Numbered from the stretch's first letter, positions 24,392 through 59,124 are shown. The stretch is 64,000 nt of DNA from a virus (IMGVR_UViG_3300045988_108221:4654-68653), one strand, 5' to 3'. The notes: generated by a model from the letters alone, not told the origin. Program-made: numbers and translations.

Positions 24392-24440
24392 TATGTTATG
24401 TTTGTATGAATGGTTGTTTATATATTGAATATAAATATAA

Positions 24441-24465: not shown

Positions 24466-24475
24466 TTGTTATTGT

Positions 24476-24736: not shown

Positions 24737-24753
24737 TTTAATAACCCCTTTTC

Positions 24754-24945
24754 TTAACATTCCCAATAATCAACAATATCATTATGGGCAGTAATTAAAT
24801 CAATCATGTGAAAATATAAATATTCTTTTGAACATTCCCATAACTCATTAGAATTATTATTAATAGTTGCCACATCATGAGCGTGATTTATTGCATAATC
24901 GATGTACACCATGGATATATACGTTATGAGACTGCCAAAATACAT
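24754..24945 (-). CDS. hypothetical protein (AT-rich cassette)
   Basis: 63-aa ORF; no convincing SD seen. Confidence 0.3.
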   Translation of the reverse strand: MYFGSLITYISMVYIDYAINHAHDVATINNNSNELWECSKEYLYFHMIDLITAHNDIVDYWEC

Positions 24946-24972
24946 ATGGTCTAAAAACGCTATATTTGCTTT

Positions 24973-25176
24973 CTAAGGCGTTTTATATGTTTTACATACA
25001 ATCATAAGCGAATGTTTTTACACGCACCCTATAGCGTAAAATAACGAATGTTTTATTGAGAAATGTTCTCAAAATATATGGATGCCTACGCTGGTGTTCT
25101 CATTTAGGATTTCTAATTGAGAATTGCTGCTTAAGGTGTACACGCAAGAAAAAGCGGTATCTATAAGGATACCGCC
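24973..25176. repeat. non-coding repeat module, copy A
   Basis: Aligns block by block with 28637-28810: TACAATCATAA, ATAACG, TTATTGAGAA, ACGCTGG, TTCTCATTT, TCTAATTGAGAAT, then a GGCGGTAT-stem hairpin. Confidence 0.65.
25146..25176 (-). terminator. rho-independent terminator after gene 25184..25495
   Basis: GCGGTATC / GATACCGC stem (25154-25161 / 25168-25175), followed on the minus strand by TTTTTC. Confidence 0.7.
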
Positions 25177-25183
25177 GTATAAA

Positions 25184-25495
25184 CTATAATTCATTTAGAG
25201 TGTTTTTGTAAACCGTGTATAATTCATGTTCAAGGAACGGCAACCATCTCCATTTATCCGCTTTGTCTAAAATCCTTTCATTGATAAACACAATTTCAGA
25301 TATAACATAAGCACGATAATTCATAGTATTTTCGTGTTCCTCTTTTACCCTACTAGGGTTATAACCGTAACACTCGGCATCTCGTAAGAAATTTAATAAT
25401 TTACCTTTATCTTTTGTAGGCTTGCCACTTGTAGCATAATTAGATACTACGTTCAATATAGCTTTTTTCGTGTATTCGTTTTTGATAGTAAACAT
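25184..25495 (-). CDS. hypothetical protein (AT-rich cassette)
   Basis: 103-aa ORF with a terminator directly downstream. Confidence 0.5.
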   Translation of the reverse strand: MFTIKNEYTKKAILNVVSNYATSGKPTKDKGKLLNFLRDAECYGYNPSRVKEEHENTMNYRAYVISEIVFINERILDKADKWRWLPFLEHELYTVYKNTLNEL

Positions 25496-25525
25496 TATTA
25501 TATTACCTCTTTTTATTCCTTTCGT

Positions 25526-25915
25526 TTATACGATATAACTACTTGCAACGGCGAGCCGTTCGCCGTCAATCATAATCTGAACACCTTTATATAAGTTAAT
25601 AGGTAGTAAATATCTTTGATGTGTATAACTATAAATATGCTCGTTTTCATAAATCAAAAATTGCCCTTGATTATTCTGTAATTTAACTTTATATAAATCA
25701 AACTTGATATAATACCGCCGTAAAACACGATTATTTTTATCAAGTAAGATATAAAACTCTTTGCCTTCGCTATCACATGGATAATAAGTGATAGCGTTAT
25801 CTATTTTATATAGTGTACCATTGTTATATAATCGGTTGCGTTTTTCTATTGTGATAGGTTTAAACTCTACCCACTTTAAACCATAATACACTTTTATGTT
25901 TTCTACTGTTTTCAT
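25526..25915 (-). CDS. hypothetical protein (AT-rich cassette)
   Basis: 129 aa; GGAGGG SD. Confidence 0.55.
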   Translation of the reverse strand: MKTVENIKVYYGLKWVEFKPITIEKRNRLYNNGTLYKIDNAITYYPCDSEGKEFYILLDKNNRVLRRYYIKFDLYKVKLQNNQGQFLIYENEHIYSYTHQRYLLPINLYKGVQIMIDGERLAVASSYIV

Positions 25916-25997
25916 GTGTTCCCTCCGATGTGATCACTTATGATTATATTCCACGGTTAAACACAAACGGTATAACCGTGGTTAAAAAATTCTTATG

Positions 25998-26066
25998 TTA
26001 TAATGTTTGATTGTTTTTCGTGCGTTGAATAAACACGATAATTAAACTTAATAAAACTAAAGCCAT
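25998..26066 (-). CDS. possible 22-aa hydrophobic peptide
   Basis: AAAGGGGA SD, then MALVLLSLIIVFIQRTKNNQTL. Below the ORF-track cutoff. Confidence 0.3.
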   Translation of the reverse strand: MALVLLSLIIVFIQRTKNNQTL

Positions 26067-26098
26067 ATAAATATGTTCCCCTTTCGATTGATAAGCAA

Positions 26099-26401
26099 CT
26101 ATAGATATAACTCATCAAGATAATATAGCAAATCAAGATATCTATTGAGAGACTTTATAAAGTCATTCAAATTGTTGTATTCCTTATGTGTTCCCTTAAC
26201 AGTAATAAAACAATAATTATTACCTTGCACAAATATATGTATATCGTAGTCATGATATAATAACGTATGTATTTTATCGTATTCTACATAGCTATAAAAC
26301 ATATAACTTTCTGCATATGTGATAATTTCATAATCTTTTGACATATCAAATATAAATGCATTTAGGTTTATAATCTTATGTATATTATCTTTTGTTTTCA
26401 T
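26099..26401 (-). CDS. hypothetical protein (AT-rich cassette)
   Basis: 100 aa; AGGGGTG SD. Confidence 0.55.
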   Translation of the reverse strand: MKTKDNIHKIINLNAFIFDMSKDYEIITYAESYMFYSYVEYDKIHTLLYHDYDIHIFVQGNNYCFITVKGTHKEYNNLNDFIKSLNRYLDLLYYLDELYL

Positions 26402-26411
26402 ATTTTCACCC

Positions 26412-26771
26412 CTAACAATAAACTACAAATGGACTATACATATCTGTGTATGCAACACATGATTCACAACAAATATTTCTAAATGTTTTTTCATAGTCAA
26501 TCGATATCCAATACGGTAAATCACCATATAAACCACTTTCATAAAAATATAAGTCTATATAATTATAAATATCTGTATAATACCAACAATCACCATTTTT
26601 AATATATTCGCTTGACTCGTCAATATTCAAATCTTGACTTAAAATGTCAAGCATATCCATTTCATATTCTGAAAATTCGTTGATACACTCAAGAAAATCA
26701 TGCAATCCATCAAGTGTTCCTAACTCGTTTTTATATTGTCGTGCATATTGTAACAATGTTATAAATTCCAT
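26412..26771 (-). CDS. ArdA-like antirestriction protein (C-terminal domains only)
   Basis: YNYIDLYFYESGLYGDLPYWISIDYEKTFRN parallels the Tn916 ArdA segment YDVARYYIEETGALGEVPASLQNYIDYQAYGRD (from memory). Acidic; lacks the ArdA N-terminal domain. Confidence 0.4.
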   Translation of the reverse strand: MEFITLLQYARQYKNELGTLDGLHDFLECINEFSEYEMDMLDILSQDLNIDESSEYIKNGDCWYYTDIYNYIDLYFYESGLYGDLPYWISIDYEKTFRNICCESCVAYTDMYSPFVVYC

Positions 26772-26782
26772 GTTGTACCTCT

Positions 26783-27367
26783 TTAACCGTTAATTTCTGT
26801 AATAAGTCCGATATCTTCACCGTCAATAGTAAAATAGTATTGACTACAATAATTTATTAATTCCTTTGTATCTAATAAGTCATTATGGTTATTATGATAA
26901 TGTTCTATAATTAATTCTATATCTTTATCAAAATCATAAAAACTTTGTTGTAATTTTCTCCATTCGTTCGCAAGTTGTAAACATTCGCTATCAGATAATA
27001 AAAGATAATTCTCTAACTTAAAGCCGTTAACATCAAATATTTGATATTTTACGTTTTCGCCGTTTATGTCTGCATTAGGTAAAACAAAACGAATAAGCAA
27101 TGATAATTTTTTATTATCGTTTATAAACATTTCTAAAGCATCACCATAATAGCTATATTTATAAAGACATTGATAATGAGTAGTAATATTATATTCTTTT
27201 TCTTGTACATTAGATAATAATATCATATCAATAAGTTCGTCAATCATTCCATTATGAATGATATTATCAAGCATATTTTTCTTTATTTTATTTTGTACAT
27301 CAATAGATAATTCATTATATTCATATATATTAATTGTCTTTGTTTCTGTTTTTGTAATTGTTTTCAT
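26783..27367 (-). CDS. hypothetical protein (AT-rich cassette)
   Basis: Start moved to ATG 27367 (MKTITKTETKTINIYEYNELS..) behind AAGAGG; 194 aa. Confidence 0.5.
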   Translation of the reverse strand: MKTITKTETKTINIYEYNELSIDVQNKIKKNMLDNIIHNGMIDELIDMILLSNVQEKEYNITTHYQCLYKYSYYGDALEMFINDNKKLSLLIRFVLPNADINGENVKYQIFDVNGFKLENYLLLSDSECLQLANEWRKLQQSFYDFDKDIELIIEHYHNNHNDLLDTKELINYCSQYYFTIDGEDIGLITEING

Positions 27368-27368
27368 T

Positions 27369-27635
27369 TTAACCTCTTTCAATAATCATATATAATTCTT
27401 CATTATTTACTTTTTCAATGTGTAACGGCGAAAATTTTCGAATAAATCTATTTAAGTATTTAGATGTGGTATGAGAATATTTTTCTCTATCTTGATACAT
27501 TACATCATTTTTACTATCATATACGGCAATCAAAGTATTATAACTTTGAAAAGCTGTTAGATTTAAACAGATATTAATAATAAATTGATTGGGAACCGTG
27601 TTACCCTTACTACTTAACATATTTTGTACTAACAT
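27369..27635 (-). CDS. conserved phage/plasmid protein of unknown function
   Basis: The pattern NQFII....FQSYNTLIA....YSHTTSKYLNRFI recalls a widespread unnamed phage/plasmid family (memory only). Confidence 0.5.
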   Translation of the reverse strand: MLVQNMLSSKGNTVPNQFIINICLNLTAFQSYNTLIAVYDSKNDVMYQDREKYSHTTSKYLNRFIRKFSPLHIEKVNNEELYMIIERG

Positions 27636-27748
27636 AATTTTTGCCCTTTCATTCGTTCCAATACGGTATATACTCTATTCATACCGTACACCATAGCCAC
27701 AGTAAACACCATAGCCAAAACATTTTTTAAAATCATAGATAATTCCAT
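27629..27748 (-). CDS. possible 39-aa membrane peptide
   Basis: MELSMILKNVLAMVFTVAMVYGMNRVYTVLERMKGQKLC. Stop overlaps the next start (ATGTTAG). First ORF after promoter 27900-27928. Confidence 0.35.
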   Translation of the reverse strand: MELSMILKNVLAMVFTVAMVYGMNRVYTVLERMKGQKLC

Positions 27749-27899
27749 AGGCTACACCCTTTCGATTAAATATATAACCTTTTCTATGGTCTTATTGTAC
27801 CGCTTAGTAGGTGCAATGTACAATAGTTTTTATCTATGGTTGCCATAGTTTTAAGCTATGGCGGTACACCATTGAATACCGCTATACAATAGATATATA

Positions 27900-27928
27900 T
27901 AAATACCACAAAAACACGAATTTGTCAA
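27900..27928 (-). promoter_or_regulatory. sigma70-type promoter for cassette 27748->25184
   Basis: Minus-strand TTGACA (27928-27923), 17-nt spacer ending in TGG, then TATTTA. Confidence 0.55.
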
Positions 27929-28259
27929 ATTTTAGCAAAAACCAAGCGTAAATGAGAATGTCTCTCAATAAAACGTTTAAATATTTGCGTTCTAAGGTCT
28001 GTCTAAAGTCTCCGCCTTATGATTGTATGCAAAAAGTCAAAAACGCCGTACAACGCAAATAAATCAATTCTAGAGGTATTGTCTAAATGAGAATGACGGT
28101 GGTATCTTTTGTATGCATACATAAGTTATGAATTTGTTTGTCTACAATAGACACCGTTGTATATCGAATGTTTTCTATATGTTATTAACAAATATAATCA
28201 TTATTGACTAATAGCTAAAATTTTCGATATGGTTTACGCAGGCGGTGGTCGTGCAATAT

Positions 28260-39214: not shown

Positions 39215-39571
39215 TTACACCTGCTTTCTGCGATACTCAGTAATAGTTGTAAGTTCTGGGTACACTTCATACCACTCAAAATCAAATCTTTCGATGGTGT
39301 GAATGTCTTCTGAGAATTGCAAACAATGGTATTTATTTGTTTGAACATTGTGATAAATCTCTTTATGAACTAAGTGTTCGCCACCAAAGACTTCTTTTTC
39401 TTTAACCAACTCATAGTTGCCAAAAGAACAAAACACAATGTTTTCAACAATTTCAGTAATATATTGGTTTGGGTTTTCCAACCAATGAATACATACTAAG
39501 TCCATATCTTCGATAGACAAACCGTCAACACCATAGTCTGCGTAATGTTGTAACGCTTGCTCAGTTGTCAT
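39215..39571 (-). CDS. hypothetical protein
   Basis: 118-aa ORF. Confidence 0.5.
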   Translation of the reverse strand: MTTEQALQHYADYGVDGLSIEDMDLVCIHWLENPNQYITEIVENIVFCSFGNYELVKEKEVFGGEHLVHKEIYHNVQTNKYHCLQFSEDIHTIERFDFEWYEVYPELTTITEYRRKQV

Positions 39572-40262
39572 TTGTTTCCTCCTGTGTATTTAAAATCCGT
39601 TGCTTGGCAACATCGAAGTATAATGGGTCTAACTCAATACCAATGAAATCTCGACCCAACTCAACGGCTGCAACACCTGTTGTACCAGAACCCATAAATG
39701 GGTCAACAATAGTATATTCCTGTGGCAGAATACCTACGATGTTTTTCATTACTTGTAATGGCATCTGACATGGATGCACAGTTTTTTCTGCTGAGGTATT
39801 CTTAACGATATTAATATTCCACCAATCGTAAATCGGTGTGCCTTTAGAACCATTTGCTATTAGCTGTTTAATTCGTTTATCATTTGGGTTTTTGTACGGT
39901 TGTAACACTTGCTTGAAATCAGGCATTACACCAAAGAACGCAATATCACGATGTTGCTTGCGATTGTTTGTGTTATATACCCATGATACTACACGAGTTG
40001 GTGGCATGTCAATATCAATCGCAAGCTGATACAACTGTTCTGGATAGTGAATAACCACGGATGGATGCGATGGAGAAAATACCATAGATAACATATATCG
40101 GTATGCATCATCATCCATTTTATCGTGGTATTTGTCGTAATGATACCCAATGTTGAACGGAGGGTCTGACACGATGATGTACGGCTTGCTTTCTTCTTGC
40201 AGTTGGGTTTCTATTGATTGTAATATGTTTCGACAATCGTTGTGGTATAAATCAATCTTCAT
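39561..40262 (-). CDS. DNA N6-adenine / N4-cytosine methyltransferase
   Basis: Motif IV VSDPPFN and motif I VDPFMGSGTTGVAAVELGRDFIGIELD (beta-class order). Start taken at MKIDLYHNDC (40262). Confidence 0.8.
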   Translation of the reverse strand: MKIDLYHNDCRNILQSIETQLQEESKPYIIVSDPPFNIGYHYDKYHDKMDDDAYRYMLSMVFSPSHPSVVIHYPEQLYQLAIDIDMPPTRVVSWVYNTNNRKQHRDIAFFGVMPDFKQVLQPYKNPNDKRIKQLIANGSKGTPIYDWWNINIVKNTSAEKTVHPCQMPLQVMKNIVGILPQEYTIVDPFMGSGTTGVAAVELGRDFIGIELDPLYFDVAKQRILNTQEETNDN

Positions 40263-40650
40263 AGTCTTCCTCAAATAACATTTTTGCGATTTCTTCGTCA
40301 TAACTGAAGCCAAGTAGTCGCAGGATACTATCTTTATCCTTTTCAGTAAATGCTCTGTGACCGTTCAATTTCAAAGACATATTTGTGAGACTCATCCCAA
40401 TTCTTGATGCAGCCTTGCTGACACTTAAATTTCGGTCTTTTAACATACCTCGTAACATTGTATATCGCTCTTGGTATCGTGTTCCAATGTCTACTTTGAG
40501 TCGTGCGAGATATGTTTTGACATCTTCAATATCTTTAAAAGTGTCGTCTTCTAACACCTTTTGCAATTTTGACAGTAACACCGATGTTTCTTCAAACTTT
40601 TTGTAATCTTCTTCAATGACGATACCATTAATTCTTACATGTGTTTTCAT
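40252..40650 (-). CDS. HTH (XRE-like) DNA-binding protein
   Basis: Start moved to ATG 40650 behind GGAGGA. C-terminal LSVSKAASRIGMSLTNMSLKLNGHRAFT helix-turn-helix. Confidence 0.55.
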   Translation of the reverse strand: MKTHVRINGIVIEEDYKKFEETSVLLSKLQKVLEDDTFKDIEDVKTYLARLKVDIGTRYQERYTMLRGMLKDRNLSVSKAASRIGMSLTNMSLKLNGHRAFTEKDKDSILRLLGFSYDEEIAKMLFEEDYED

Positions 40651-40695: not shown

Positions 40696-42126
40696 TTATT
40701 TACTTAATAGATTTTCTAGCATTTCTACACGCTCTTTTAAGTCTTTTAACTCATCTCGTTTAACATTCGTTGTTTTACCAACTTTAAAGTTAACAGATGC
40801 ATTAGTCACCTTGGCAGAGCCAAAAGATTGTCCAACGTAGAACATTACATTTTCATTCGGAGCGTAGAACGCACCCAATGCACCAGCGTTTGCATTTTTG
40901 TAATGACCGAAGCCAGCACTAAAAGACAGTTTGTTGTTCACATCGAAACCATCCCAATGTAATGCACTCAAGGCAGATACAGATGCAATCGCTTTGTTTG
41001 TGCCACGTTCTAATTGATTGATTTTATTATCGAAGTTACCAAACATTTGTTGACTTTGATTTTCCAAAGTAATAATTCGGTTTTCATGGTTCATAGACAA
41101 TTGTTTTAACGCTGAAATATCGCCTGTGTGAGCGTTTTGGATGTCTCGTAATGTATTTACTTGTGCACTAACATTTGTGATGGATTGATGGTTCTCATTA
41201 ATTAATGCGGTATTAGAACGAATGTCTGCTGTATTGGTTCGCACTTGTTTTTGGGTTTCGACAATCGCATCTGCATTAGTGGCTACATATGTATGCAACT
41301 CATCAATGGCATCTTTGTTTGTTTTGATGTTGATTCCATTAGTATTGATTTCATCAATAGCTGCATGCAACTGAGAACCATTGACTGCATCTATAGAGTC
41401 AGAATCAATACGTCCAGCGGCTACATTCGTAATAGTTCGTTCCTTGCCTGTGTCGCCAATAGATATAGTACCTGCTGGGACAACACCAGCAAATGTATGC
41501 GTTTTGCCATTAATTACGGAAGAAGAAGTACCAATTACTACACTAGCTTTCGCATTATGTCCGATTGCTACGGATTCATCTTGGGTTACAGAAGCATCGT
41601 TACCAATAGCAATACCATAGTTAGCATGGTTGATTGTGCTAGATTTGCCTAAAATAATTCCGTGATAACTGTCTTGTAGTATATTTCTATTGCCAAGCAA
41701 TACATCGCCTGTAGAGTTGCCTGTGTGATTTTCCACATTATTAAAAGCACCGATTAGAACAGAATCCTTTGTAGCACCATGGTTAATATTGCCAATGTTA
41801 ACTGCATCATTCCCATCTGTAGTAAGTCCATAACCAATAGCTATGGAGGTCGTACTATTGGCATGAACTCCATTACCGATAGCAATAGTATTAATATTGT
41901 GTGCACCAACTCCATTGCCGATTGCGATGGCATTTGTGTTAGCAGTAACACCGTTGCCAAGACCAATGCTATTATTGCTTGTGTTGATTACTCCGTTACC
42001 AACTGCAACACTATTATCTTGAGCAGCAATAACACCATTGCCAAACTCCACTGGGTTTGCAAACACGCCCATAGTTGCCATTGCTAATACTGCGGATAAA
42101 ATTGTTGTTTTCATTTTGTTGTTCAT
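40696..42126 (-). CDS. trimeric autotransporter adhesin (YadA-like)
   Basis: Signal peptide MNNKMKTTILSAVLAMATMGVFA. About 12 head repeats of the S.A.G.G / NS.AIG type. Neck ERTITNVAAGRIDSDSIDAVNGSQLHA, about 120-aa coiled-coil stalk. C-terminal anchor ALSALHWDG..LSFSAGFGHYKNANAGALGAFYAPNENVMFYVGQSFG. Confidence 0.85.
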   Translation of the reverse strand: MNNKMKTTILSAVLAMATMGVFANPVEFGNGVIAAQDNSVAVGNGVINTSNNSIGLGNGVTANTNAIAIGNGVGAHNINTIAIGNGVHANSTTSIAIGYGLTTDGNDAVNIGNINHGATKDSVLIGAFNNVENHTGNSTGDVLLGNRNILQDSYHGIILGKSSTINHANYGIAIGNDASVTQDESVAIGHNAKASVVIGTSSSVINGKTHTFAGVVPAGTISIGDTGKERTITNVAAGRIDSDSIDAVNGSQLHAAIDEINTNGINIKTNKDAIDELHTYVATNADAIVETQKQVRTNTADIRSNTALINENHQSITNVSAQVNTLRDIQNAHTGDISALKQLSMNHENRIITLENQSQQMFGNFDNKINQLERGTNKAIASVSALSALHWDGFDVNNKLSFSAGFGHYKNANAGALGAFYAPNENVMFYVGQSFGSAKVTNASVNFKVGKTTNVKRDELKDLKERVEMLENLLSK

Positions 42127-49085: not shown

Positions 49086-49393
49086 TCGACTACCTCCGTT
49101 GTTCCAACGTCTTCGCTACAGGTCACAGGTTCAGCATCGAAGTTAAAGCTAAAGATTTTCTGTAAACGCTCTTGTGTGATATATTTCGTATGTTTGTTTT
49201 TATCTGGAAAATACAGTCTCACTCGTGGTGCTAAATAGCCAGCTTGACTGCGTTCACCATGCAGTTTCGTACAAATGTAAAACTCGTCACCAACACGCAA
49301 GTCATTGACAAACGCTGTTCTCGATTGTCGGTGAATTGCAGTCACTCGGTAACGGTCAACAGTACGAAACTCTTGAGTTTTTATGTTTAACAT
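49082..49393 (-). CDS. hypothetical protein
   Basis: Start taken at ATG 49393 (MLNIKTQEF..), TAATG overlap with the nuclease stop. Confidence 0.45.
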   Translation of the reverse strand: MLNIKTQEFRTVDRYRVTAIHRQSRTAFVNDLRVGDEFYICTKLHGERSQAGYLAPRVRLYFPDKNKHTKYITQERLQKIFSFNFDAEPVTCSEDVGTTEVVE

Positions 49394-50265
49394 TACTTTT
49401 TTATCCTTTCTTGATAATATGGACAACAATATGATACACTACAATAGTCTTTACATTTGCGACCCATTGGATATGTCTTGGACACCCATCGGTCTTTTGC
49501 AGAACACTCTCGTGGTAATTCTTGTTTGGCGATGGCATTTACCAAGGCATCCTTTTTGTATAACGCATAATCAAGCAACCTCTGGTCGTTCATCTTGGGT
49601 AGCTGTATTAGATAACATTGTTTATCTAAATTGAATGTCTTGATTGTATTAATTGGCTCTTTGATAATCACTTGTAAGAACATGTCATTGATTGGTATAC
49701 CATGCTTATTTAACAGTATTCTATATAAATTTTGTTGCTTGCAGTAATCTCCATAATGGTGTAAACCATCGTATACCCATTGTTGTCGCATCTCGGTTTC
49801 ACCCTTGCGTTTACCACGAGTGATTGTATATGGTCTCCACAATGGTCTTCCGCCCATCATTGTCGCACACTTGTATGCACCAACGACTTTGTAATCATAC
49901 AAGGTATGATGCTCTAAGTCAATACAGTCCATCTGACCTGTGAGACCTTGATAATTCAACCGAAACTCACCTGCGTAATTCTGCGGTAGACAATTCTCAA
50001 GAATACCATGCACGGATGTACCGACTGTCGCAGCAATCGAAGAGAATGGGTTGATTGTCTCTGGGTTGTTTGCCTTGAGATACATGTATAATGTTGGAGA
50101 CAATACCTCGGTGACTGAGAAGTGGTCTCTATTTAAATTCCTGAGACGACTTGCATTTACAAGCAAAGGTTTTGCAAGACACCGTTGCCCCATTCGACAT
50201 TCTTTCATACAGTCTTTAACCAGTATGGTTTTGCCGTCAGGGCACAGAAAGGAGTTTTCTTTCAT
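49393..50265 (-). CDS. PD-(D/E)XK nuclease with Cys cluster (Cas4/RecB-like exonuclease)
   Basis: N-terminal Cys residues, core MDCIDLE..LYDYKV, C-terminal CKDYCSVSYCCPYY. Confidence 0.6.
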   Translation of the reverse strand: MKENSFLCPDGKTILVKDCMKECRMGQRCLAKPLLVNASRLRNLNRDHFSVTEVLSPTLYMYLKANNPETINPFSSIAATVGTSVHGILENCLPQNYAGEFRLNYQGLTGQMDCIDLEHHTLYDYKVVGAYKCATMMGGRPLWRPYTITRGKRKGETEMRQQWVYDGLHHYGDYCKQQNLYRILLNKHGIPINDMFLQVIIKEPINTIKTFNLDKQCYLIQLPKMNDQRLLDYALYKKDALVNAIAKQELPRECSAKDRWVSKTYPMGRKCKDYCSVSYCCPYYQERIKK

Positions 50266-50747: not shown

Positions 50748-50837
50748 TGGAGGAAAGTGTGGGATTTGAACCCACGGAACATTTCTGTTCGACAGTTTTC
50801 AAGACTGTTGCATTAAACCAAACTCTGCCAACTTTCC
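50748..50837 (-). tRNA. tRNA-Ser (anticodon UGA), type II, CCA encoded
   Basis: Hand-folded. Acceptor GGAAAGT/ACTTTCC. Anticodon arm ACAGT-CTTGAAA-ACTGT. Long variable arm GAACA-gaaa-TGTTC. T arm GTGGG-TTCAAAT-CCCAC. 3' end TCCA. Confidence 0.85.
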
Positions 50838-50934
50838 ATGTGAGTCGGCTGACAAAACAGCGTACGTCCGTTCTGTCTCTAACGGCAAGCCAGCTCATAC
50901 CGACCACCTTATTAGCTAGATAAGATGGATTTAA

Positions 50935-51026
50935 TGGAGGATGGTACAGGATTTGAACCTGTGGTCGTTTTAATGAACGACATCTCTTTAGCAAAGAGAC
51001 TCAATAAACCACTCTGACAACCACCC
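50935..51026 (-). tRNA. tRNA-Ser (anticodon GCU), type II, CCA encoded
   Basis: Hand-folded. Acceptor GGGTGGT/ACCATCC (G3-U70 wobble). Anticodon arm TCTCT-TTGCTAA-AGAGA. Variable arm GTCGTT-cattaa-AACGAC. T arm ACAGG-TTCAAAT-CCTGT. 3' end TCCA. Confidence 0.85.
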
Positions 51027-51641: not shown

Positions 51642-52802
51642 TTATGAGAAATAATTAATCTCTGATAGATGAGATGTTTTCTCGTCATACTTGAATTGGA
51701 ATATATTGGCTGGCCCTCGTAATTTTCTACGAGTCTTACCAATTTTAACATATGTATGGTTCTTGACTTTTTCTCTTTCGTCAAAATCAAGTTGCGTATC
51801 GGTGATATATGGTCGCCACAACAACAAAATAATATCTGCAATGGCTTTTAACGCATTAGAACCCTTGATGTACCTCAATATTGGTTCATATGGTTTCTTA
51901 CTTTTTTCTTTCCCAAAGGTATTTTGAGATTCCTCGTTGAACTGGCAAAGCATAAACAAAATCAAGTTGAACTTTTTAACGTATTCTTTCATCTTGTTTG
52001 CATTTTTGGACAACACAGGAATGTCGTCAATATCAGGTATCAAGTGGAAATGGTCGAACACAACAAAATCCACAGGGAAATCGTTAGCATAACAAACCTC
52101 TGTAATCTTCTCAAGGTCTTCAATGGTTTTATTCGGCTCGTCAACAAAACGTACACGCTTGTCTAGCACAGCAGACACTTTTGAGTAAATCTCGATACCT
52201 GACTCCGTCTGCAACATCTCAAATAATTCGTCTTCTTCAACCCCAAGAATTTCCTTGACGATTTCAGCCAAGAATTGACCTCTTGGCATTTCCAAGGAGA
52301 AAATTAAGACATTATCATTAGAGTCCATTAATCGATGTGCAGCAACCTTGGCTGCAAAGAATGATTTACCTTGGTTGGTGTATGCACCAAGCAATACGAT
52401 TTCTCTACGTTTAACACCATTGATTGCAAAATCCAAGGATGGAAAACCAAGAGGAACACCCTCTTGACCGATGAATGTCTTCATGTCCTCAAACGAGTCA
52501 TTAAACCCATGGACTTTTTCCCAAAGTTCTTCACTATTGGAAGCAGTCACATCGAGATAATTTTTGACATCTTCAATGGAACGCTCCCATCGTTTTGCCA
52601 GCATGGTGGCAATATCGGCAAGCACCATTTTGTCTGTTACCGACTTGCAGAACCGAGATGCTTTTTTATATTGGTCTTCTTTTCTTGGGTATTCTTCCAA
52701 AAGAACATTCAAACATGTAATATCTAATGGTTCAGTCTCAAGAGAGCCAATGTCAATATTTTGGACTAACAAGTCGTTGTAATCTTTACATTGTTTCTCC
52801 AT
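51642..52802 (-). CDS. dnaB: DnaB-family replicative helicase
   Basis: Walker A GAYTNQGKSFFAAKVA, Walker B-like DFVVFDHFH, RecA-type C-terminal domain; 386 aa. Confidence 0.8.
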   Translation of the reverse strand: MEKQCKDYNDLLVQNIDIGSLETEPLDITCLNVLLEEYPRKEDQYKKASRFCKSVTDKMVLADIATMLAKRWERSIEDVKNYLDVTASNSEELWEKVHGFNDSFEDMKTFIGQEGVPLGFPSLDFAINGVKRREIVLLGAYTNQGKSFFAAKVAAHRLMDSNDNVLIFSLEMPRGQFLAEIVKEILGVEEDELFEMLQTESGIEIYSKVSAVLDKRVRFVDEPNKTIEDLEKITEVCYANDFPVDFVVFDHFHLIPDIDDIPVLSKNANKMKEYVKKFNLILFMLCQFNEESQNTFGKEKSKKPYEPILRYIKGSNALKAIADIILLLWRPYITDTQLDFDEREKVKNHTYVKIGKTRRKLRGPANIFQFKYDEKTSHLSEINYFS

Positions 52803-53065
52803 TAGTCCTCCGATAACGTAATCACGGTATTGGATTTCTTATGGTATTCATCAACATAATACTCATTGGTATTACCATTAAATGTTACTTCCCAGTATGT
52901 ATGGTCGTAATCATCATGTGTTGACATAACCAATGCTTTGTGGTTTTTCAATGTTTTTGAGAACCATACAATATTTAAGGACTCGAATACTTCATCGATT
53001 TTATTGTCTTCGACATACATAGTATACCATACGGCTTCAATACAATTATCAATAAATTTGCCCAT
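52802..53065 (-). CDS. hypothetical protein
   Basis: Start moved to ATG 53065 (MGKFIDNCIEAVWY..) behind CAGGAGG; 87 aa. Confidence 0.5.
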   Translation of the reverse strand: MGKFIDNCIEAVWYTMYVEDNKIDEVFESLNIVWFSKTLKNHKALVMSTHDDYDHTYWEVTFNGNTNEYYVDEYHKKSNTVITLSED

Positions 53066-53162
53066 GTAACCTCCTGTGGTGTTCAATAATGTTCTTCCCA
53101 AGTTCGTAAACAATCGGTATAGACACGGAATTACCAGCTTGTTTATATAACTGTGCGTTCGA

Positions 53163-53951
53163 TTATATCTTCGCACAGGTTTCAAATTGTTCATCAGTAA
53201 ACCCCTGTAATCGCCAAAACTCCCTTGGGGTCAACTTGCGTATTACATTAGGATTTTTCGACAATAAAATCTTTGGTTCAATACCACCACCCTTGACACA
53301 CGTCAAAGTCGGTGATAAGCCATGTGGTGAATATATACGACCTCGTTGTGGATTGCCACCAAAAGATGTTGTCTTGATTATATTTCCGACTTGAATAATA
53401 GATTGTTCGCTTTGGTCTGGTCGGTATAATACTTCGGATGGACATTCGTTTCCAAGGTGTCCGATAACGAACAACCTTTCACGGTTTTGCGGAAGTCCAA
53501 AGTCTTTTGTGTTGTACACACGCCATGCGATACTGTACCCTGCTTTGTCCATTTCAGACAAAACGCCGTAAAATCCCCATCCGTTATCAATTGACAAGAG
53601 GTTTTTAACATTCTCAATAAGCAACCATTTGGGTTTATGTTTTGTTTCATTCAATAACCTCGTGACTTCGTAAAATAAACCGCTTCGTGTGTTTCCCATG
53701 CCGTCTTTCAGTCCAGCAATGGAAACATCTTGACATGGGAAACCGAAGCACCATAAGTCTGCATACGGCATCTCTGTACCGTTTAATGCACGAACATCTG
53801 GTGAAAACCAAAGATTATCCGTTGGGTATAACGCACGGTATGATTCTTGTGCGTATTTATCTTGTTCGCACCAACCAACGCACTTCATGCCAGCCTTGGT
53901 TAAGCCATAATGAAAACCGCCAATGCCAGCGAATAAATCAATGAATTTCAT
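53163..53951 (-). CDS. dcm: DNA (cytosine-5) methyltransferase
   Basis: Motif I FIDLFAGIGGF, motif IV GFPCQDVS, motif VI LLIENVKNLL, QNRERLF. Confidence 0.9.
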   Translation of the reverse strand: MKFIDLFAGIGGFHYGLTKAGMKCVGWCEQDKYAQESYRALYPTDNLWFSPDVRALNGTEMPYADLWCFGFPCQDVSIAGLKDGMGNTRSGLFYEVTRLLNETKHKPKWLLIENVKNLLSIDNGWGFYGVLSEMDKAGYSIAWRVYNTKDFGLPQNRERLFVIGHLGNECPSEVLYRPDQSEQSIIQVGNIIKTTSFGGNPQRGRIYSPHGLSPTLTCVKGGGIEPKILLSKNPNVIRKLTPREFWRLQGFTDEQFETCAKI

Positions 53952-53965
53952 GTAGACCTCCTGTG

Positions 53966-54313
53966 TTATATTTTTACCGTGTATAACTTTGGTCGTATCT
54001 CATAACCAATACCACCGTCTGCATCTCGAATAAACCGAACGTCTACCAAGTGAGAAATGGCACTCATGGGTAGATTACGCAATTCTTCTTCGGTATCTCT
54101 AGCAGCAAGATGCCAAAGTATTACCGTTTCCAAACTGGTTAAAATATTTTTACAAAACGCATTTGTAACCCATTGTATCATATCTAAGCGTGGTTCGTCA
54201 ACGTATCTTTTTGACTTAATGTTTTGGTCTACAGATGGCATCACATAATTTGTCTTCAACACGGTCAATATCTTTTGTTCTAATGTCATTGAATCATCCT
54301 TAGTGTCTAACAT
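53966..54313 (-). CDS. hypothetical protein
   Basis: 115-aa ORF. Confidence 0.5.
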   Translation of the reverse strand: MLDTKDDSMTLEQKILTVLKTNYVMPSVDQNIKSKRYVDEPRLDMIQWVTNAFCKNILTSLETVILWHLAARDTEEELRNLPMSAISHLVDVRFIRDADGGIGYEIRPKLYTVKI

Positions 54314-54774
54314 GAGATATCTTCTATTTGATAGAATGTATCATGTAAAATAAGTCTGCCATCTGCTTGCATCTCATAATGACCTAGTTTGAAATAAGCA
54401 TTATCATATGTACGACTAAAGCCACCAAGTTGTTCATAACGATTATTTAACGCACAGAACTTTAAAAACATTTCTTGTTGTCCTGTGGTAAACTTACGAA
54501 GAACTTCTGGATACTTCTCAGGCTCATCTAAGAAATCATAAAAGTCTACGCTATTGAAGCCGATGGTTTCATGAAAGACTTCATCTAAATGCTGTTCATC
54601 ATATTGCCCTAAAGCCATAGAGATAATATCGTATTCTTCATTATCTGCTTTTTCTTTAAGAATCAACTCAGACCACTTATGTTTGGCTGCACTTAGATGA
54701 AAAAACATATATTCAGGACTTTCGATATAATCTTCGTATTCTCCTGAGCATAACGCCAAAATGTAAACATCCAT
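54307..54774 (-). CDS. hypothetical acidic protein
   Basis: 155-aa ORF. Confidence 0.5.
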   Translation of the reverse strand: MDVYILALCSGEYEDYIESPEYMFFHLSAAKHKWSELILKEKADNEEYDIISMALGQYDEQHLDEVFHETIGFNSVDFYDFLDEPEKYPEVLRKFTTGQQEMFLKFCALNNRYEQLGGFSRTYDNAYFKLGHYEMQADGRLILHDTFYQIEDISC

Positions 54775-54788
54775 TATTAAACCACCTC

Positions 54789-55337
54789 CTAATCGTTATG
54801 TTGTTTACCTGTGTACCATTCTTGATGTTCGCTATTGTCGTTTTCAATATGGATTACGATGTCGTTATTAAACAGATATGTCAACAAACCTTCTTTGGTT
54901 TGAAACATATTTTTGTCCACGACATTCCAAGATTGATGGTCAACATATGCATCGACCTTACTAGAGTCACCGTATTCTTCTGGTAGATTGACAACAATAT
55001 CTAATTCGTTTAACCATTGGATTACTTGTTTGAAAAATGGGTCTTCTTTAATAACACCCCAAGTTTTATACTGGTAGACGGACGACATAAGGTAACTTAG
55101 CTTTTCTGCTGGAGAAGATAACACATCAAATCCCCAACCGTATTCATCAAAGTACAAAGGCATATACGAATACATTTCATATTCCTTTGGCTTCTTTGTT
55201 AGATGCAATTCTTTTGTGGCGAAACACAAGTCGTCTTTTGGTTTGTAATTGTAATCACGCAAGACCGTGTTTTTGTATGCCAACGAATGTGCAGAACTAG
55301 AGTTTGTTTCAAAAACTCCGTTGCGTATTAATTTCAT
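54789..55337 (-). CDS. FETNSSS.HS-motif protein, paralog 1
   Basis: Start moved to ATG 55337 behind TAGGAGG: MKLIRNGVFETNSSSAHSLAY.. Shares N-terminal, central (DPFF.QVIQWL) and C-terminal (MFQTKE.L..YLFNNDIVI) blocks with 55643..56137. Confidence 0.6.
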   Translation of the reverse strand: MKLIRNGVFETNSSSAHSLAYKNTVLRDYNYKPKDDLCFATKELHLTKKPKEYEMYSYMPLYFDEYGWGFDVLSSPAEKLSYLMSSVYQYKTWGVIKEDPFFKQVIQWLNELDIVVNLPEEYGDSSKVDAYVDHQSWNVVDKNMFQTKEGLLTYLFNNDIVIHIENDNSEHQEWYTGKQHND

Positions 55338-55347
55338 TTGTTTCCTC

Positions 55348-55629
55348 CTATTTGGCAACCCAATAATCAACAGTTTTCACCTTATGCTCGACTTCGATAA
55401 AACGAATAAGATGTCTTTTCTTGTTATTGTATTCTTCGTAACATTCTAACATATAATAACGACCATTAGACCCCATGTATATATCTTGAACCTTAGCATA
55501 AAGACTATCGAAGTATAACACAATATGTTTAACTCGGTCTAAACATGACGGCATCATGTCAACATCACAACGAATACCAACTTGGGATTCCAATAGACAT
55601 TCCAATGAATGTTGGTCTTGTGAATCCAT
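55348..55629 (-). CDS. hypothetical protein
   Basis: 93-aa ORF between the two paralogs. Confidence 0.5.
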   Translation of the reverse strand: MDSQDQHSLECLLESQVGIRCDVDMMPSCLDRVKHIVLYFDSLYAKVQDIYMGSNGRYYMLECYEEYNNKKRHLIRFIEVEHKVKTVDYWVAK

Positions 55630-55642
55630 TAGTACTCCTCCC

Positions 55643-56137
55643 TTAGTACTCTGCCATTACCTCATATTGGCGAACATCAATCACGATATTATTATCAAAC
55701 AAATATTTGTATAAATCTTCTTTGGTTTTAAACATTTCTTGCTTAACAACACCATTGGTAGGAACTGATTCAACAATGTCGTCTACATCGTACCCAATTT
55801 CTTCTAAATAGATTCCGATGTCAGATAACCATTGTTTTATCTGTAGATAAAATGGGTCACCAAACACTTCGTCAACCAAAGATTCGCTATAGATTTCCAT
55901 TAGTAAAAACCATAGTTTATCTTGTGGTGTTGACAATGTTTGTTCTTTCCATACATAATCCGTAAAGTGGACTTCCCAAGACTGGTCGTTAAACATCGGA
56001 GTAAAACCAAGAACCCCAAACTGTTGTGTAATTGTTTGTGTTTGTGGCGGTTTAGCCAATTGTAATCTTGCGACATATGCCATAGAATGACAAGAAGAAC
56101 TGTTGGTTTCAAATACGCCTACTCGCTTAAGAATCAT
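55643..56137 (-). CDS. FETNSSS.HS-motif protein, paralog 2
   Basis: Start moved to ATG 56137 behind CAGGAGG: MILKRVGVFETNSSSCHSMAY.. ..DPFYLQIKQWL.. ..MFKTKEDLYKYLFDNNIVI. Confidence 0.6.
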   Translation of the reverse strand: MILKRVGVFETNSSSCHSMAYVARLQLAKPPQTQTITQQFGVLGFTPMFNDQSWEVHFTDYVWKEQTLSTPQDKLWFLLMEIYSESLVDEVFGDPFYLQIKQWLSDIGIYLEEIGYDVDDIVESVPTNGVVKQEMFKTKEDLYKYLFDNNIVIDVRQYEVMAEY

Positions 56138-57041
56138 GCGACACCTCCTGTGATTCGCAAAAATGAAAATACGAACGTAAATCAGTTTCATCAAAACGTT
56201 TGATGTTATTCCGTGTTCGGCTGGATGGAGCAAAATATTGTTCCACCGCATTGATATACATGGAATGTTCGCCTTGGTAAAACGATTTGTATTCCTCATC
56301 TGTTATCTTACCACGGATTTCCAATTGTTGCAACCCCAAGTTATCAAAAGATACAATGTCAAAAATTTCTGTGAGTTGCATTATATTGGATTTCCATTGT
56401 TTGTGTTCTGGTGTGTTTAAATCAACTTTACCACGGTTAAACCCAAAGTCTTTTTCACCCAAGATTAGTAACTTACGGTACTTCACAGATAGCTCTTTTA
56501 CATCGTCAAAATCATCAATACCATTAATCACATGGATAACAGTATGTGGATATTCTGCAATCCAATCTGGTAGCGATAAACAACCCTGTAACGAACGATA
56601 CGAGATACCAAGACCATATACATATGGCATCATCTCTTTAAGCCGTGTGTCGCCATATTGCAAAATATAACGCTCGTTCATTGTAATGTTGACAACCAAA
56701 CCAAGTTTCCATAAATTCTTGACGAACTGCATTAAGTCGTCTGTAATTTGATTGACACCTAGGGCAATTTCTGTCCCACGTGGTAATTTTGCGTCCATCA
56801 ATACCTGTTGCAGAATACCATAATGACATTCTACTCCGCTAACCAATGCAGATTCGTGACAAAATGCACAAGTAGATTTCTGCGTTTCCACGTTATAACC
56901 ATATGGACATTGTGTAGAAACACGAATATCAATATTGAGTGGTGTCTGTAGTGTTAGCGGTTCGTTGTCTGGGTATTCAATAATGCGTGTGCCATCTCGT
57001 AAGTCAAGCCACACGCTTGCGTTTCCGTTTGTATACTTCAT
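56127..57041 (-). CDS. Cys-motif enzyme-like protein (possible non-canonical radical-SAM/Fe-S)
   Basis: 304 aa with STQCPYGYNVETQKSTCAFCHES (C-x12-C-x2-C with an aromatic residue between the last two Cys). Function not recognised. Confidence 0.3.
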   Translation of the reverse strand: MKYTNGNASVWLDLRDGTRIIEYPDNEPLTLQTPLNIDIRVSTQCPYGYNVETQKSTCAFCHESALVSGVECHYGILQQVLMDAKLPRGTEIALGVNQITDDLMQFVKNLWKLGLVVNITMNERYILQYGDTRLKEMMPYVYGLGISYRSLQGCLSLPDWIAEYPHTVIHVINGIDDFDDVKELSVKYRKLLILGEKDFGFNRGKVDLNTPEHKQWKSNIMQLTEIFDIVSFDNLGLQQLEIRGKITDEEYKSFYQGEHSMYINAVEQYFAPSSRTRNNIKRFDETDLRSYFHFCESQEVSHDS

Positions 57042-57060
57042 GATTTCCTCCTGTAATAAA

Positions 57061-57315
57061 TCAACCGATGTACTTATCGTTAATCTCTAATAAGCTGTGT
57101 GGTGTAACATCAAAGTCATAACCTTTGTATTTAACCAACACCATGGCAACCAACGCAGTCACCATTCGGCATACACTCAGGATGCCAAAGATGCCAATCG
57201 TTAATGCAATTAGCGTTGGTTGTTGCATATTTAACACCAATAGTAAAATCACATATAGTGTCCAATACAGAACACGAAAGGTAAATACTGGGTGTTGTTC
57301 AATTAGTTTTTTCAT
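57061..57315 (-). CDS. small membrane protein (2-3 TM)
   Basis: FRVLYWTLYVILLLVLN.., LIALTIGIFGILSVCRMVTALVAMVLV. Confidence 0.5.
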   Translation of the reverse strand: MKKLIEQHPVFTFRVLYWTLYVILLLVLNMQQPTLIALTIGIFGILSVCRMVTALVAMVLVKYKGYDFDVTPHSLLEINDKYIG

Positions 57316-58040
57316 TTGTTTCTCTCCTGTTGTTTAATGTAGTCACCCCATTGTTTAGCCATTGCATCTGCCATACCCTTGAAAGTCTTAGAGCGTAAAC
57401 GTCTGCGTTCTTCGGCAGTCTTTGTTTCGGTTAATGCATCTGAAATCCACTTTTGCATCCGTTTGCCGCTTTTAAAAGTAAGTGTCTCACCCTCGTCTAC
57501 GACATTCGTAGGTTCTAATAATGGCAACCCTTTCAGCCATAAACATGTTGTTTTTCGTGCTTGGTCTCCAAACATAAATGGTTGAACGATTTGGTCTGGC
57601 TTGCGGTATCTCGTTGACATAACACCAACAGGGTTTTCTACCGCAATATAGTCAATGTTTGCATCCATAAGAGCCATAAAGAAGTTTGCACCATCTTCTT
57701 GGTCTTTCTTACGATTTGGAAACTTTGGATGTGGTCTGCGTTGTTCAATCGGTAGATGTTTGTCCTCAGGATGATAATACCATTTTGCACCACTAGATGT
57801 CAAGTATGTACATGGTGGATGTGCAATCATTAAATCCCATTTGTCAACCATAACTCGTGTACCATCTTGTGTTATACCACCGTTATTCCTAATGACTTCT
57901 AGTGCATCACCCATAATGTGCCACTCAGGATATCCACCAGAGCACTCCACCAAGTCACAACTGTAGGCGTTAAACCCAAGTTCCCTAAAAGCCTTACAAA
58001 CGGTTTGAGACTCCTCGCATGCAATTAATACGTTAATCAA
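57312..58040 (-). CDS. C5-methyltransferase-like protein (short phage type)
   Basis: TTG start 7 nt after GGAGG. N-terminus MINVLIACEESQTVCKAFRELGFNAYSCDL and IAHPPCTYLT (Pro-Cys catalytic context), as in short phage proteins annotated as DNA cytosine methyltransferase. Confidence 0.5.
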   Translation of the reverse strand: MINVLIACEESQTVCKAFRELGFNAYSCDLVECSGGYPEWHIMGDALEVIRNNGGITQDGTRVMVDKWDLMIAHPPCTYLTSSGAKWYYHPEDKHLPIEQRRPHPKFPNRKKDQEDGANFFMALMDANIDYIAVENPVGVMSTRYRKPDQIVQPFMFGDQARKTTCLWLKGLPLLEPTNVVDEGETLTFKSGKRMQKWISDALTETKTAEERRRLRSKTFKGMADAMAKQWGDYIKQQERNK

Positions 58041-58207
58041 AATTCAACCTCCTGTACCCATTCTCCCAAGTAATCAAAAACTGTTCCATTCAGCACATCT
58101 AAAGAAAAGTACTTCTTACCGTCTTTCACAATGGCTTTATCTTCGCAATAAGCGGTTATATCGTTTGAACCGAATAAATCTTCATAAGATACGACTTTTA
58201 TTTTCAT
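58037..58207 (-). CDS. small hypothetical protein (56 aa)
   Basis: CAGGAGG SD, then MKIKVVSYEDLFGSNDITAYCEDKAIVKDGKKYFSLDVLNGTVFDYLGEWVQEVEF. Below the ORF-track cutoff. Confidence 0.45.
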   Translation of the reverse strand: MKIKVVSYEDLFGSNDITAYCEDKAIVKDGKKYFSLDVLNGTVFDYLGEWVQEVEF

Positions 58208-59124
58208 TCTTCAACCTCCTGTTTGGGATATTTAACAACACGCACGTTTAATTCTGGTGCGTACTTATTGATGTCTTCTCGTGTCTTTAACAATGCCTTA
58301 CGCCCTGTTGCATCACACTCTGGATTGTCAACAGCCAATGCAAAGGTAATATCGCCATTATATCTCTTTTGTAACTCCCATAGTAAACCAATTTGGTCTT
58401 TTGTCAAACGACCACCAAGATAACCAACGCATGGTACGCCTTGTTGATGTGCTGACATAACATCGAGATAACCCTCGGCAACATGCAGTATACCATTTGG
58501 TTTTAACATTTTGATGGCACGATGGTAATTAAACAGCAGTTGTCGTTTAATGAATACATCGTCTTCTCTTGTGTTCTTGTACTTTGGTTCGTTGGTTTCT
58601 TCGAGCCGTCTTTTGGAAAACCCAACTATACGACCATAGGCATCTTGAATTGGGATAACAATACCAGATGATTGCACTCCTAAGAAACCACCAGCATCAT
58701 AACCAATTAGAAATTCTTCCAAAGTCTCATTATTGATGCCACGCTTAATATTCATATATTCACGAACGGCATCAACGGCTTTATGATACTTCATGGCAAC
58801 CTTGGTGTTTTGTCCTACGATGCTTTTCTGCTTTTGGTACGTTGGGTCGTCTGTTGATACCTCGTACTTTTCTGCCAAGGCTTCTACCGCTTGATAGAAC
58901 GGAAGACCCTCTACTTCGGCATAGAAACCGATGGCATCGCCAGATGAACCACATCGGTGACAATAATATCTGTCGCCCAAGATGCAAAACTCTGTTGGGT
59001 TATCACCATGACAAATCGGACAGGTTCCTCGTGGTACTTTGCCACCGTTTCGTGATAACGTGGTGTATTCTTCCACAAGTTCTTGTATGTCGATTTTATA
59101 CTTAAGTGTTGAGATTGTGTTCAT
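58204..59124 (-). CDS. dnaG: DNA primase (DnaG-type)
   Basis: CHC2 zinc finger CPICHGDNPTEFCILGDRYYCHRCGSSGD. TOPRIM AEGYLDVMSAH and DNPECDATG. Confidence 0.85.
   Translation of the reverse strand: MNTISTLKYKIDIQELVEEYTTLSRNGGKVPRGTCPICHGDNPTEFCILGDRYYCHRCGSSGDAIGFYAEVEGLPFYQAVEALAEKYEVSTDDPTYQKQKSIVGQNTKVAMKYHKAVDAVREYMNIKRGINNETLEEFLIGYDAGGFLGVQSSGIVIPIQDAYGRIVGFSKRRLEETNEPKYKNTREDDVFIKRQLLFNYHRAIKMLKPNGILHVAEGYLDVMSAHQQGVPCVGYLGGRLTKDQIGLLWELQKRYNGDITFALAVDNPECDATGRKALLKTREDINKYAPELNVRVVKYPKQEVEE

Follow-up and report, generated by a model that had tools for sequence, protein, structure and literature searches.

In a 64,000-nt virus sequence from IMG/VR (IMGVR_UViG_3300045988_108221:4654-68653), the interval between the DnaB and DnaG genes encodes a 304-residue protein with a C-x12-C-x2-C motif and, close beside it, two proteins, termed here FET-A and FET-B, that begin with a common FETNSSSxH motif (the tag). 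We refer to the whole 64,000-nt stretch as the window and use its coordinates throughout. The window represents an uncultured ~64-kb phage; near-identical DNA was found in none of 50,697 phage records, and its terminase shows only 33-36% identity to Mu-like terminases. All genes between DnaB and DnaG lie on the minus strand, and a search with local hidden Markov models (HMMs) located exactly two tagged genes and one gene of the 304-residue type in the whole window. A preliminary description of this DNA had placed the correct coordinates and motifs on the two paralogs, whose three common motifs are visible in a BLASTP alignment, and had read the interval as a single DNA or nucleotide modification island. 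The latter proposal does not hold, as only the 304-residue protein and the tagged proteins travel together in the 135 loci compared below.

FET-A and FET-B share 34% identity (BLASTP, E = 1e-24), a paralogy that, judged by this alignment, is far beyond chance, and 16 of their first 21 residues are identical. The ATG of each gene is preceded, at 6-7 nt, by an AGGAGG ribosome-binding site. The near-invariant feature of the family to which they belong is the tag, with the consensus M-x2-[IV]-R-x2-[VT]-F-E-T-N-S-S-S-x-H. FET-A has the canonical form of the class-1 body described below, with EYGW, YVDHQS and IENDN motifs. The body of FET-B is also of class 1 and lacks the DH and NDN motifs of the family, while the alignment shows its N-terminal tag to be retained.

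An index-free profile search of 1.84 billion representatives returned 2,028 proteins of this family at E ≤ 1e-3. At 50% identity the family forms at least 2,000 clusters; at 90% identity a word-indexed search gave at least 6,760. Its members, 100-480 residues long, occur at hundreds of IMG/VR loci, including those of 60-kb gut phages, Lak megaphages and Microcystis cyanophages. When 68 members were scanned, 62 matched phrog_28997, listed as 'unknown function', and none had a consistent match in Pfam. Among 51 long members Pfam likewise gave nothing consistent except a Tad2-like domain in three, and the C-terminal extensions of the 290-480-residue members had no Pfam match. Neither NCBIfam nor PADLOC holds a model for the family, and its profile found only noise among PDB sequences. 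A tblastn search of cultured phages with FET-A found no relative, a search in which the low-complexity filter may hide the tag. The earlier view of the paralogs as a genuine family that is not recognized is thus right, and by profile search this family is large. One distant member (P0282, 478 residues) carries a Lys/Ala-rich linker followed by an extra C-terminal domain that appears ASCH/PUA-like by eye and has no Pfam match.

The cysteines of the 304-residue protein are arranged as C45-x12-C58-x2-C61 within STQCPYGYNVETQKSTCAFCHES, a C-x12-C-A-F-C motif in which the aromatic residue is kept. On its own the protein matches phrog_16999 ('Fe-S oxidoreductase', 9e-23) and has no match in Pfam at E ≤ 0.1 or in NCBIfam; against the HMM of its family it scores E = 2.7e-158. 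Homologs from Microcystis phages (35.6% identity) and Lak megaphages (~30%) have a canonical CxxxCxxC at the same place, so the spacing in the window corresponds to a 9-residue insertion in the cluster loop. CxxxCxxC is found in 48 of 54 representative relatives, and the insertion is common to a subclade that includes the proteins of loci L016, L040 and L047. In an alignment of 55 representatives (<60% identity), the three cluster cysteines are invariant and no other cysteine is conserved, which indicates a single-cluster enzyme.

The family is connected to radical S-adenosylmethionine (radical-SAM, rSAM) enzymes. PF04055 (Radical_SAM) is matched at E ≤ 1e-3 by 39 of the 55 members, four tested members exceed its gathering score (29.5 bits), and the rSAM neighbor genes at L080 and L164 are PF04055 genes. 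It is because of its homology to a family whose members match PF04055 that the window protein is placed among the rSAM enzymes. Profile matches in the PDB are almost all to rSAM enzymes (7tol, 8wm2, 5v1q, SkfB, QueE, PqqE and viperin), with alignments that span the cluster loop and a GGE-like motif; ELAIGGGNPL, the consensus of the family, lines up with GGEP in 7tol, and the window subclade has EIALGVNQIT at this place. No named equivalog was recovered among MoaA, viperin, QueE, NrdG and the anaerobic sulfatase-maturating enzymes (anSMEs)/SPASM proteins, the family reaching at most 35 bits against NCBIfam cut-offs of 126-650 bits. Its weak best matches include the nucleotide-acting MoaA and viperin. 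We therefore describe the 304-residue protein as a putative rSAM enzyme of a distinct phage clade with a single cluster, in agreement with its earlier reading as an rSAM variant with an enlarged cluster loop, for which the C-x12-C-x2-C spacing had been given correctly.

IMG/VR and reference sequences were scanned with the tag motif as seed, using mechanically called open reading frames (ORFs) and local HMMs, and an rSAM gene was sought within 8 kb. Such a gene was present at 74 of 79 loci. A second tag-seeded scan, of bacterial and archaeal assemblies with one genome per prokaryotic species, found it at 68 of 81, with many of the misses on short contigs or at contig ends. Most of the prokaryotic records are metagenome-assembled genomes (MAGs) from gut and rumen, assigned to Clostridia, Bacteroidota, methanogens and Patescibacteria. 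Phage DNA may have been mis-binned in such records, and the tagged loci within them are likely to be phage or prophage DNA. Starting from the enzyme instead, loci with an rSAM protein no more than 59% identical to that of the window held a tagged gene in 48 of 49 cases, and 87 of the 89 tagged genes in this set read FETNSSSxH. The pairing is almost obligate both ways. Of the two co-occurrences of the FETNSSS family that had earlier been proposed as a check, the one with radical-SAM genes is seen in these counts; the two methyltransferases of the interval are kept beside the module only in ~25 close relatives.

The arrangement of the two genes is equally regular. The rSAM gene shares its strand with the nearest tagged gene at every one of the 135 non-redundant loci; the gap is ≤50 bp in 108 (median 9 bp), and the tagged gene lies upstream in 111. 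One rSAM gene is accompanied by 1-10 tagged genes; the largest expansion, ten within ~10 kb of one rSAM gene, occurs at L120 and L154 on Fibrobacter and Prevotella MAG contigs. In Lak-B7 (L002) the rSAM gene is directly followed by four tandem tagged genes. The cultured Microcystis phages provide further cases: MaMV-DC gp128 and Ma-LMM01 gp130 are tagged genes located 1-2 genes upstream of the rSAM gene, near a primase gene. The Ma-LMM01 transcriptome paper names only gp054-gp063 as early genes and gives no useful timing for gp128 or gp130. In the window, the start of FET-B overlaps the stop of the rSAM gene by 11 nt. At L068 and L070 (6109-7470) the two components are joined in a single 453-residue protein, with the rSAM enzyme at residues 6-294 followed by ...RRVVRHSLFETNSSSIHS... 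and a class-1-like body.

When all locus ORFs were clustered, no third gene family was common to distant loci. The Pfam contexts vary elsewhere and include AlkB-like, HNH, N6/N4 methyltransferase, PcfJ, SPbeta YorF/YorH, DnaB, Pol III and integrase proteins as well as many small unknowns. The rSAM enzyme and the tagged proteins are a widespread two-component phage module, and they display two features of maturase-substrate systems, adjacent genes and a motif common to otherwise divergent partners. We found no description of this link in the family libraries or the literature searched, and no mention of the tagged family in that literature.

The divergence of the partners was examined in 337 unique tagged ORFs. 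The Phe of the motif falls at residue 9-10 in 313 of them, and an Arg four residues before it, which lay outside the search pattern, is present in all 337. With the tag removed, the bodies fall into 31 BLAST clusters. Class 1 (203 members) has GEYGW, DH and NDN motifs and contains both window paralogs; class 2 (63 members, ~127 residues) has a C-terminal AFGxYGYDG; and class 3 (26 members) is Cys-rich. Alignment of the three largest classes with hhalign gave probabilities of 2.5%, 0.3% and 0.2%, and classes 1 and 2 have a single element in common, a strand that leads into G-x-Y-G-[WY]. As far as such comparisons detect, the bodies are unrelated to one another. In the 51 long tagged proteins, which have a mean column identity of 15%, the only invariant columns are the R, F, E, T, N, S, S, S and H of the tag. 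Rare natural variants retain the middle Ser (NGSS in L062 and NSSA in L120), thin evidence that Ser14 may matter most. In an alignment of class-3 bodies (A8; for example L131 79-1020 and L134 7992-8915), these are 200-320 residues long with three invariant cysteines in a C-x11-C-x-C region, which may be a metal site. Class-3 genes lie directly upstream of the rSAM gene, mostly in Clostridia-class MAGs, including Christensenellaceae.

Two broad alignments (A3 and A4) have R5, E10, T11, N12, S13, S14, S15 and H17 as invariant residues. F9 and W68 are invariant in A4 and exceed 90% in A3, and G67, Y82, D133-H134 and N166-D167-N168 are near-invariant. An AlphaFold2 (AF2) model built from 129 sequences shows a confident α/β body, with a mean predicted local distance difference test (pLDDT) score of 82.5 and values >90 in the body; the pLDDT of the tag is only 54-69. 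Foldseek searches with two AF2 models recovered no known fold, with nothing in the PDB (best E 2.2) and only one uncharacterized family member in BFVD. Because the same motif stands on bodies without detectable mutual homology and AF2 does not pack it confidently onto the domain, its behavior is that of a portable tag that goes with the rSAM enzyme, and not that of an element of one enzyme's active site. The same two observations weaken the earlier proposal of a catalytic N-terminus.

The near-obligate adjacency in both directions, the translational coupling and the natural fusion support the view that the rSAM enzyme and the tagged proteins work together physically. Since one enzyme serves many tagged genes, the tag is invariant on unrelated bodies and FET-B keeps it without the body motifs, the tag would be what the enzyme recognizes. 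It is probably a docking or modification site of the rSAM enzyme. That the enzyme modifies the tag itself is a tentative, if substantial, possibility, and docking alone appears unlikely.

In the scheme we favor, the rSAM enzyme would recognize the N-terminal tag on its partner proteins, and a 5'-deoxyadenosyl radical would modify a residue in or next to it. The modified site could be His17 or any one of Ser13-15, perhaps in combination with Trp68, the sole invariant residue of the body. The variable bodies of the proteins matured in this way would carry the biological activity. Simple hydrogen-abstraction outcomes are the more plausible ones for a single-cluster rSAM enzyme, and dehydrogenation to formylglycine normally needs auxiliary clusters. 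The chemistry could be a viperin-like dehydration of Ser to dehydroalanine, the generation of a protein radical or a crosslink to the invariant Trp68. An extended form of this scheme is possible, if rather doubtful: a phage-wide and hitherto undescribed class of ribosomally made proteins would bear a portable ~14-residue tag (R-x3-F-E-T-N-S-S-S-x-H), which its dedicated single-cluster rSAM enzyme would turn into a modified residue or protein-derived cofactor, yielding diversifying phage effectors directed at the host, for example in counter-defense. The chemistry could then form dehydroalanine or formylglycine from Ser, or crosslink Ser/His to Trp.

Several points weigh against modification of the tag. 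The proposal is drawn from gene neighborhood. Loci in the tag-seeded scans were picked by their FETNSSSxH, and the family HMM gives weight to the tag, so the invariance is partly by construction, a concern that the rSAM-seeded set and the index-free search reduce and do not remove. The window subclade has diverged both in the cluster loop and in the GGGNPL (GGE-like) motif, which reads LGVNQI here, making the activity of the window enzyme less certain than that of the canonical members. The rSAM family has no recognizable SPASM domain, auxiliary cluster or recognition element (RRE) of the kind found with ribosomally synthesized and post-translationally modified peptides (RiPPs), and known rSAM peptide dehydrogenations and crosslinks usually use such elements. 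Low AF2 confidence is common at N-termini and is weak evidence. Finally, the class-1 body has conserved polar motifs of its own (GEYGW, DH and NDN) and may be an enzyme in its own right.

This last point leads to an alternative in which the tagged proteins are small metal-dependent enzymes, with the E-T-N-S-S-S-x-H loop, DH and NDN forming the active site and the rSAM enzyme catalyzing a neighboring step in a small-molecule or nucleotide pathway instead of modifying a protein. The class-1 bodies conserve GEYGW, G-Y-[IV]-D-H and N-D-N, which the AF2 model puts at or after strand ends, and the catalytic N-terminus proposed earlier and the weak resemblance of the rSAM family to MoaA and viperin would fit such a pathway. 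However, the same tag is found on bodies that lack DH and NDN (FET-B, class 2, class 3 and many singletons), it is not confidently packed in the AF2 model, up to ten paralogs accompany one rSAM gene, the proteins show no fold match to any enzyme in the PDB or BFVD, and profile searches against Pfam, NCBIfam and PDB sequences gave no match. We consider this alternative improbable.

A closer variant of our scheme, of similarly low probability, retains the tag as a docking peptide only. The variable bodies would act as adaptors that bind host molecules, such as defense proteins or signaling nucleotides, and present them to the docked rSAM enzyme, which would damage or transform whatever the bodies bind. 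One enzyme with many diverse bodies is what such a system would have, FET-A orthologs have a fused Tad2-like domain, whose fold is known to bind Thoeris signaling nucleotides, and the rSAM enzyme is weakly similar to nucleotide-acting rSAM enzymes. Yet this variant is purely inferential, the Tad2-like fusion occurs only in close relatives (3 of 51 long tagged proteins), and the strict invariance of nine polar tag residues exceeds what docking usually needs.

Other explanations of the motif were tried and set aside. The active sites of SGNH hydrolases, histidine phosphatases (RHGE-T-x-x-N) and alkaline-phosphatase-like enzymes do not fit in motif order or spacing and find no fold match. A pyruvoyl-forming Ser-Ser cleavage site would be autocatalytic and leave the rSAM enzyme unexplained, a capsid-targeting N-terminal signal would likewise not account for the obligate rSAM neighbor, and GEYGW resembles a glycyl-radical loop only loosely.

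Modification of the tag, the reading we favor, has precedents in part. The established anSME/AtsB systems resemble the module in that a dedicated rSAM enzyme is encoded beside the folded protein that it matures, the sulfatase, and its target there, near the N-terminus, is a short invariant motif with Ser/Cys. The anSMEs, however, have a SPASM domain with two auxiliary clusters where the FET-linked clade conserves three cysteines only, and sulfatases combine a (C/S)xPxR motif with an alkaline-phosphatase fold, in contrast to R-x3-F-E-T-N-S-S-S-x-H on bodies without a fold match. The glycyl-radical-enzyme activases (PflA and phage T4 NrdG) are small single-cluster rSAM enzymes whose partner is usually encoded adjacent; the rSAM family has weak NCBIfam matches to NrdG and PFLA, far below the cut-offs. 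The activases act on a glycine loop, RVxG[FY], at the C-terminus of large enzymes, whereas the FET proteins have an N-terminal tag and no such loop. In rSAM-modified RiPP systems, one maturase lies beside several paralogous substrate genes with a conserved N-terminal segment and divergence elsewhere; the precursors there are short peptides, and an RRE and SPASM/twitch domains are usual in their maturases, while the partners here are folded proteins and neither an RRE nor SPASM is detectable. QueE (C-x14-C-x2-C) shows that an rSAM enzyme can be active with a long stretch inserted between cluster cysteines one and two, and it is among the weak PDB and NCBIfam matches of the family, but the insertion here characterizes a single subclade of the FET-linked enzymes. 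The window protein was rejected as a QueE, with scores of 16-19 bits against cut-offs of 260-300 and no 7-deazaguanine genes found in the cluster. The pairs phrog_28997 and phrog_16999, and Ma-LMM01 gp130 and gp128, belong to the same families as the FET and rSAM proteins, phrog_28997 being labeled 'unknown function' and the rSAM protein only 'Fe-S oxidoreductase'.

In close relatives, FET-A orthologs are extended at the C-terminus by a Tad2-like domain (PF11195/DUF2829; 30.9 bits against a cut-off of 25 in P0001), a domain of the Thoeris anti-defense sponge Tad2. According to Pfam it is missing from the FET-A of the window, and the fusion is confined to this phage group. In most close relatives (L004-L014, with three tagged ORFs), the slot at 53966-54774 holds the Tad2-like domain and a third tagged gene; the window has the unrelated small ORFs g4 and g3 there. 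Paralog expansion, cassette-like turnover of the neighbors and the Tad2-like fusion weakly suggest a role in host takeover or counter-defense.

Few rSAM systems are known to act on proteins, and their targets are glycyl-radical enzymes, sulfatases and RiPP peptides. In the module described here, a separate rSAM clade is firmly coupled to a large protein family for which Pfam, NCBIfam and PADLOC contain no model and no structural relative was detected. If the tag is modified, the module would represent new rSAM chemistry on proteins, and the tag would be a handle for finding effector repertoires of uncultured phages. If it is not, the obligate pairing still marks a two-component activity common in phages of anaerobes.

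Table 1 Genes of the window from DnaB to DnaG
Feature	Coordinates	Strand	Remarks
DnaB	51642-52802	minus	flank
g1, DUF6275	52802-53065	minus	start = ATG after AGGAGG at 53065, not 53194
Dcm-type C5 cytosine methyltransferase	53163-53951	minus	PF00145, E 7.7e-59
g3, 115 residues	53966-54313	minus	no family match
g4, 155 residues	54307-54774	minus	no family match
FET-A, tagged protein, 182 residues, N-terminus MKLIRNGVFETNSSSAHS	54789-55337	minus	local HMM E 1.9e-43
g6, untagged ORF, 93 residues	55348-55629	minus	between FET-A and FET-B
FET-B, tagged protein, 164 residues, N-terminus MILKRVGVFETNSSSCHS	55643-56137	minus	local HMM E 5.7e-34
Putative rSAM enzyme, 304 residues	56127-57041	minus	phrog_16999 and family homology
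g9, hydrophobic protein, 84 residues	57061-57315	minus	
g10, ACEESQ...PPC...ENP-type predicted DNA methyltransferase, 242 residues	57312-58040	minus	phrog_757
g11, 56 residues	58037-58207	minus	
DnaG	58204-59124	minus	flank

The remaining genes of the interval show no comparable tie to the module (Table 1). The small ORF g6 has no match in Pfam, PHROGs, NCBIfam or PADLOC and is counted inside the module by position only; the same four libraries gave no family match for g3 and g4. The Dcm and ACEESQ-type methyltransferases were, like the membrane protein, DnaB and DnaG, found again only among ~25 close relatives. As with the small ORFs, the membrane protein and both methyltransferases are independent neighbors that do not belong to the module.

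The gene previously called a canonical Dcm is of this family by its PF00145 match and has the catalytic PCQ motif (GFPCQD), but it is truncated. An in-frame TAA at 53163-53165 stands where relatives have CAA (Gln) and cuts off the C-terminal QAGNSV motif, with SNAQLYKQAGNSV lying past the stop. Downstream of it, 37 codons are open in frame and conserved in relatives; the TAA results either from a sequencing error or from a nonsense mutation of very recent date. In a 240-residue protein of a related contig (P0087), residues 1-69 of FET-A run into the latter half of Dcm at a common GWGF, a chimera that reflects either a natural ~1.5-kb deletion in the relative or an assembly artefact. The short ACEESQ/PPC protein g10, described earlier as methyltransferase-like, matches phrog_757 ('DNA methyltransferase', 4.6e-61) with visible PPC and ENP motifs, although neither Pfam nor NCBIfam provides a match. 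Its relatives occur in 220 cultured-phage records, where the features listed are, by prediction, DNA or SAM-dependent methyltransferase or hypothetical protein. A third methyltransferase, of the N6/N4 type (PF01555, 8.7e-24), lies outside this region at 39561-40313 on the minus strand.

A hypermodification island spanning the whole DnaB-DnaG interval, in which the rSAM enzyme, the FET paralogs and the two C5-type methyltransferases jointly modify phage DNA, would suit the location of the module, which in the window is surrounded by replication genes and in some other phages has primase, DnaB or Pol III nearby, as well as the adjacent N6/N4 methyltransferase or weak Mom-like match at single loci. 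As had been described, other parts of the window encode ThyX, dUTPase and a dNMP kinase; a scan of ten ORFs outside the cluster found only these and the N6/N4 methyltransferase. These three are, however, ordinary phage nucleotide-supply genes. In the cluster, no hydroxymethylase, DNA-base kinase, glycosyl or amino-acyl transferase, DpdA or QueC/D was matched in Pfam, PHROGs or NCBIfam (g11 was scanned against PADLOC only). Moreover, the methyltransferases are not conserved together with the module beyond close relatives, the Dcm of the window is prematurely stopped, and multiplying tagged paralogs with unrelated bodies are unlike a DNA-modification pathway. Such an island is therefore very unlikely.

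Further features of the window lie outside the interval. A 476-residue ORF at 40696-42126 (minus strand) has YadA_head, YadA_stalk and YadA_anchor matches in Pfam and is trimeric-autotransporter-adhesin-like, which suggests a diderm host (window GC ~38%). Just downstream of dnaB, two tRNA-Ser genes (anticodons UGA and GCU) lie side by side at 50748-51026 on the minus strand. The 290-residue protein encoded at 49393-50265 (minus strand) has Cys clusters at each end (CPDG...C...C and CKDYC...CC) and is a candidate Fe-S nuclease-like protein. Finally, positions 24000-28000 form a low-GC patch (0.26-0.30 against ~0.38 elsewhere), inside which lies the sole plus-strand tRNA gene (tRNA-Lys UUU, 27797-27871).

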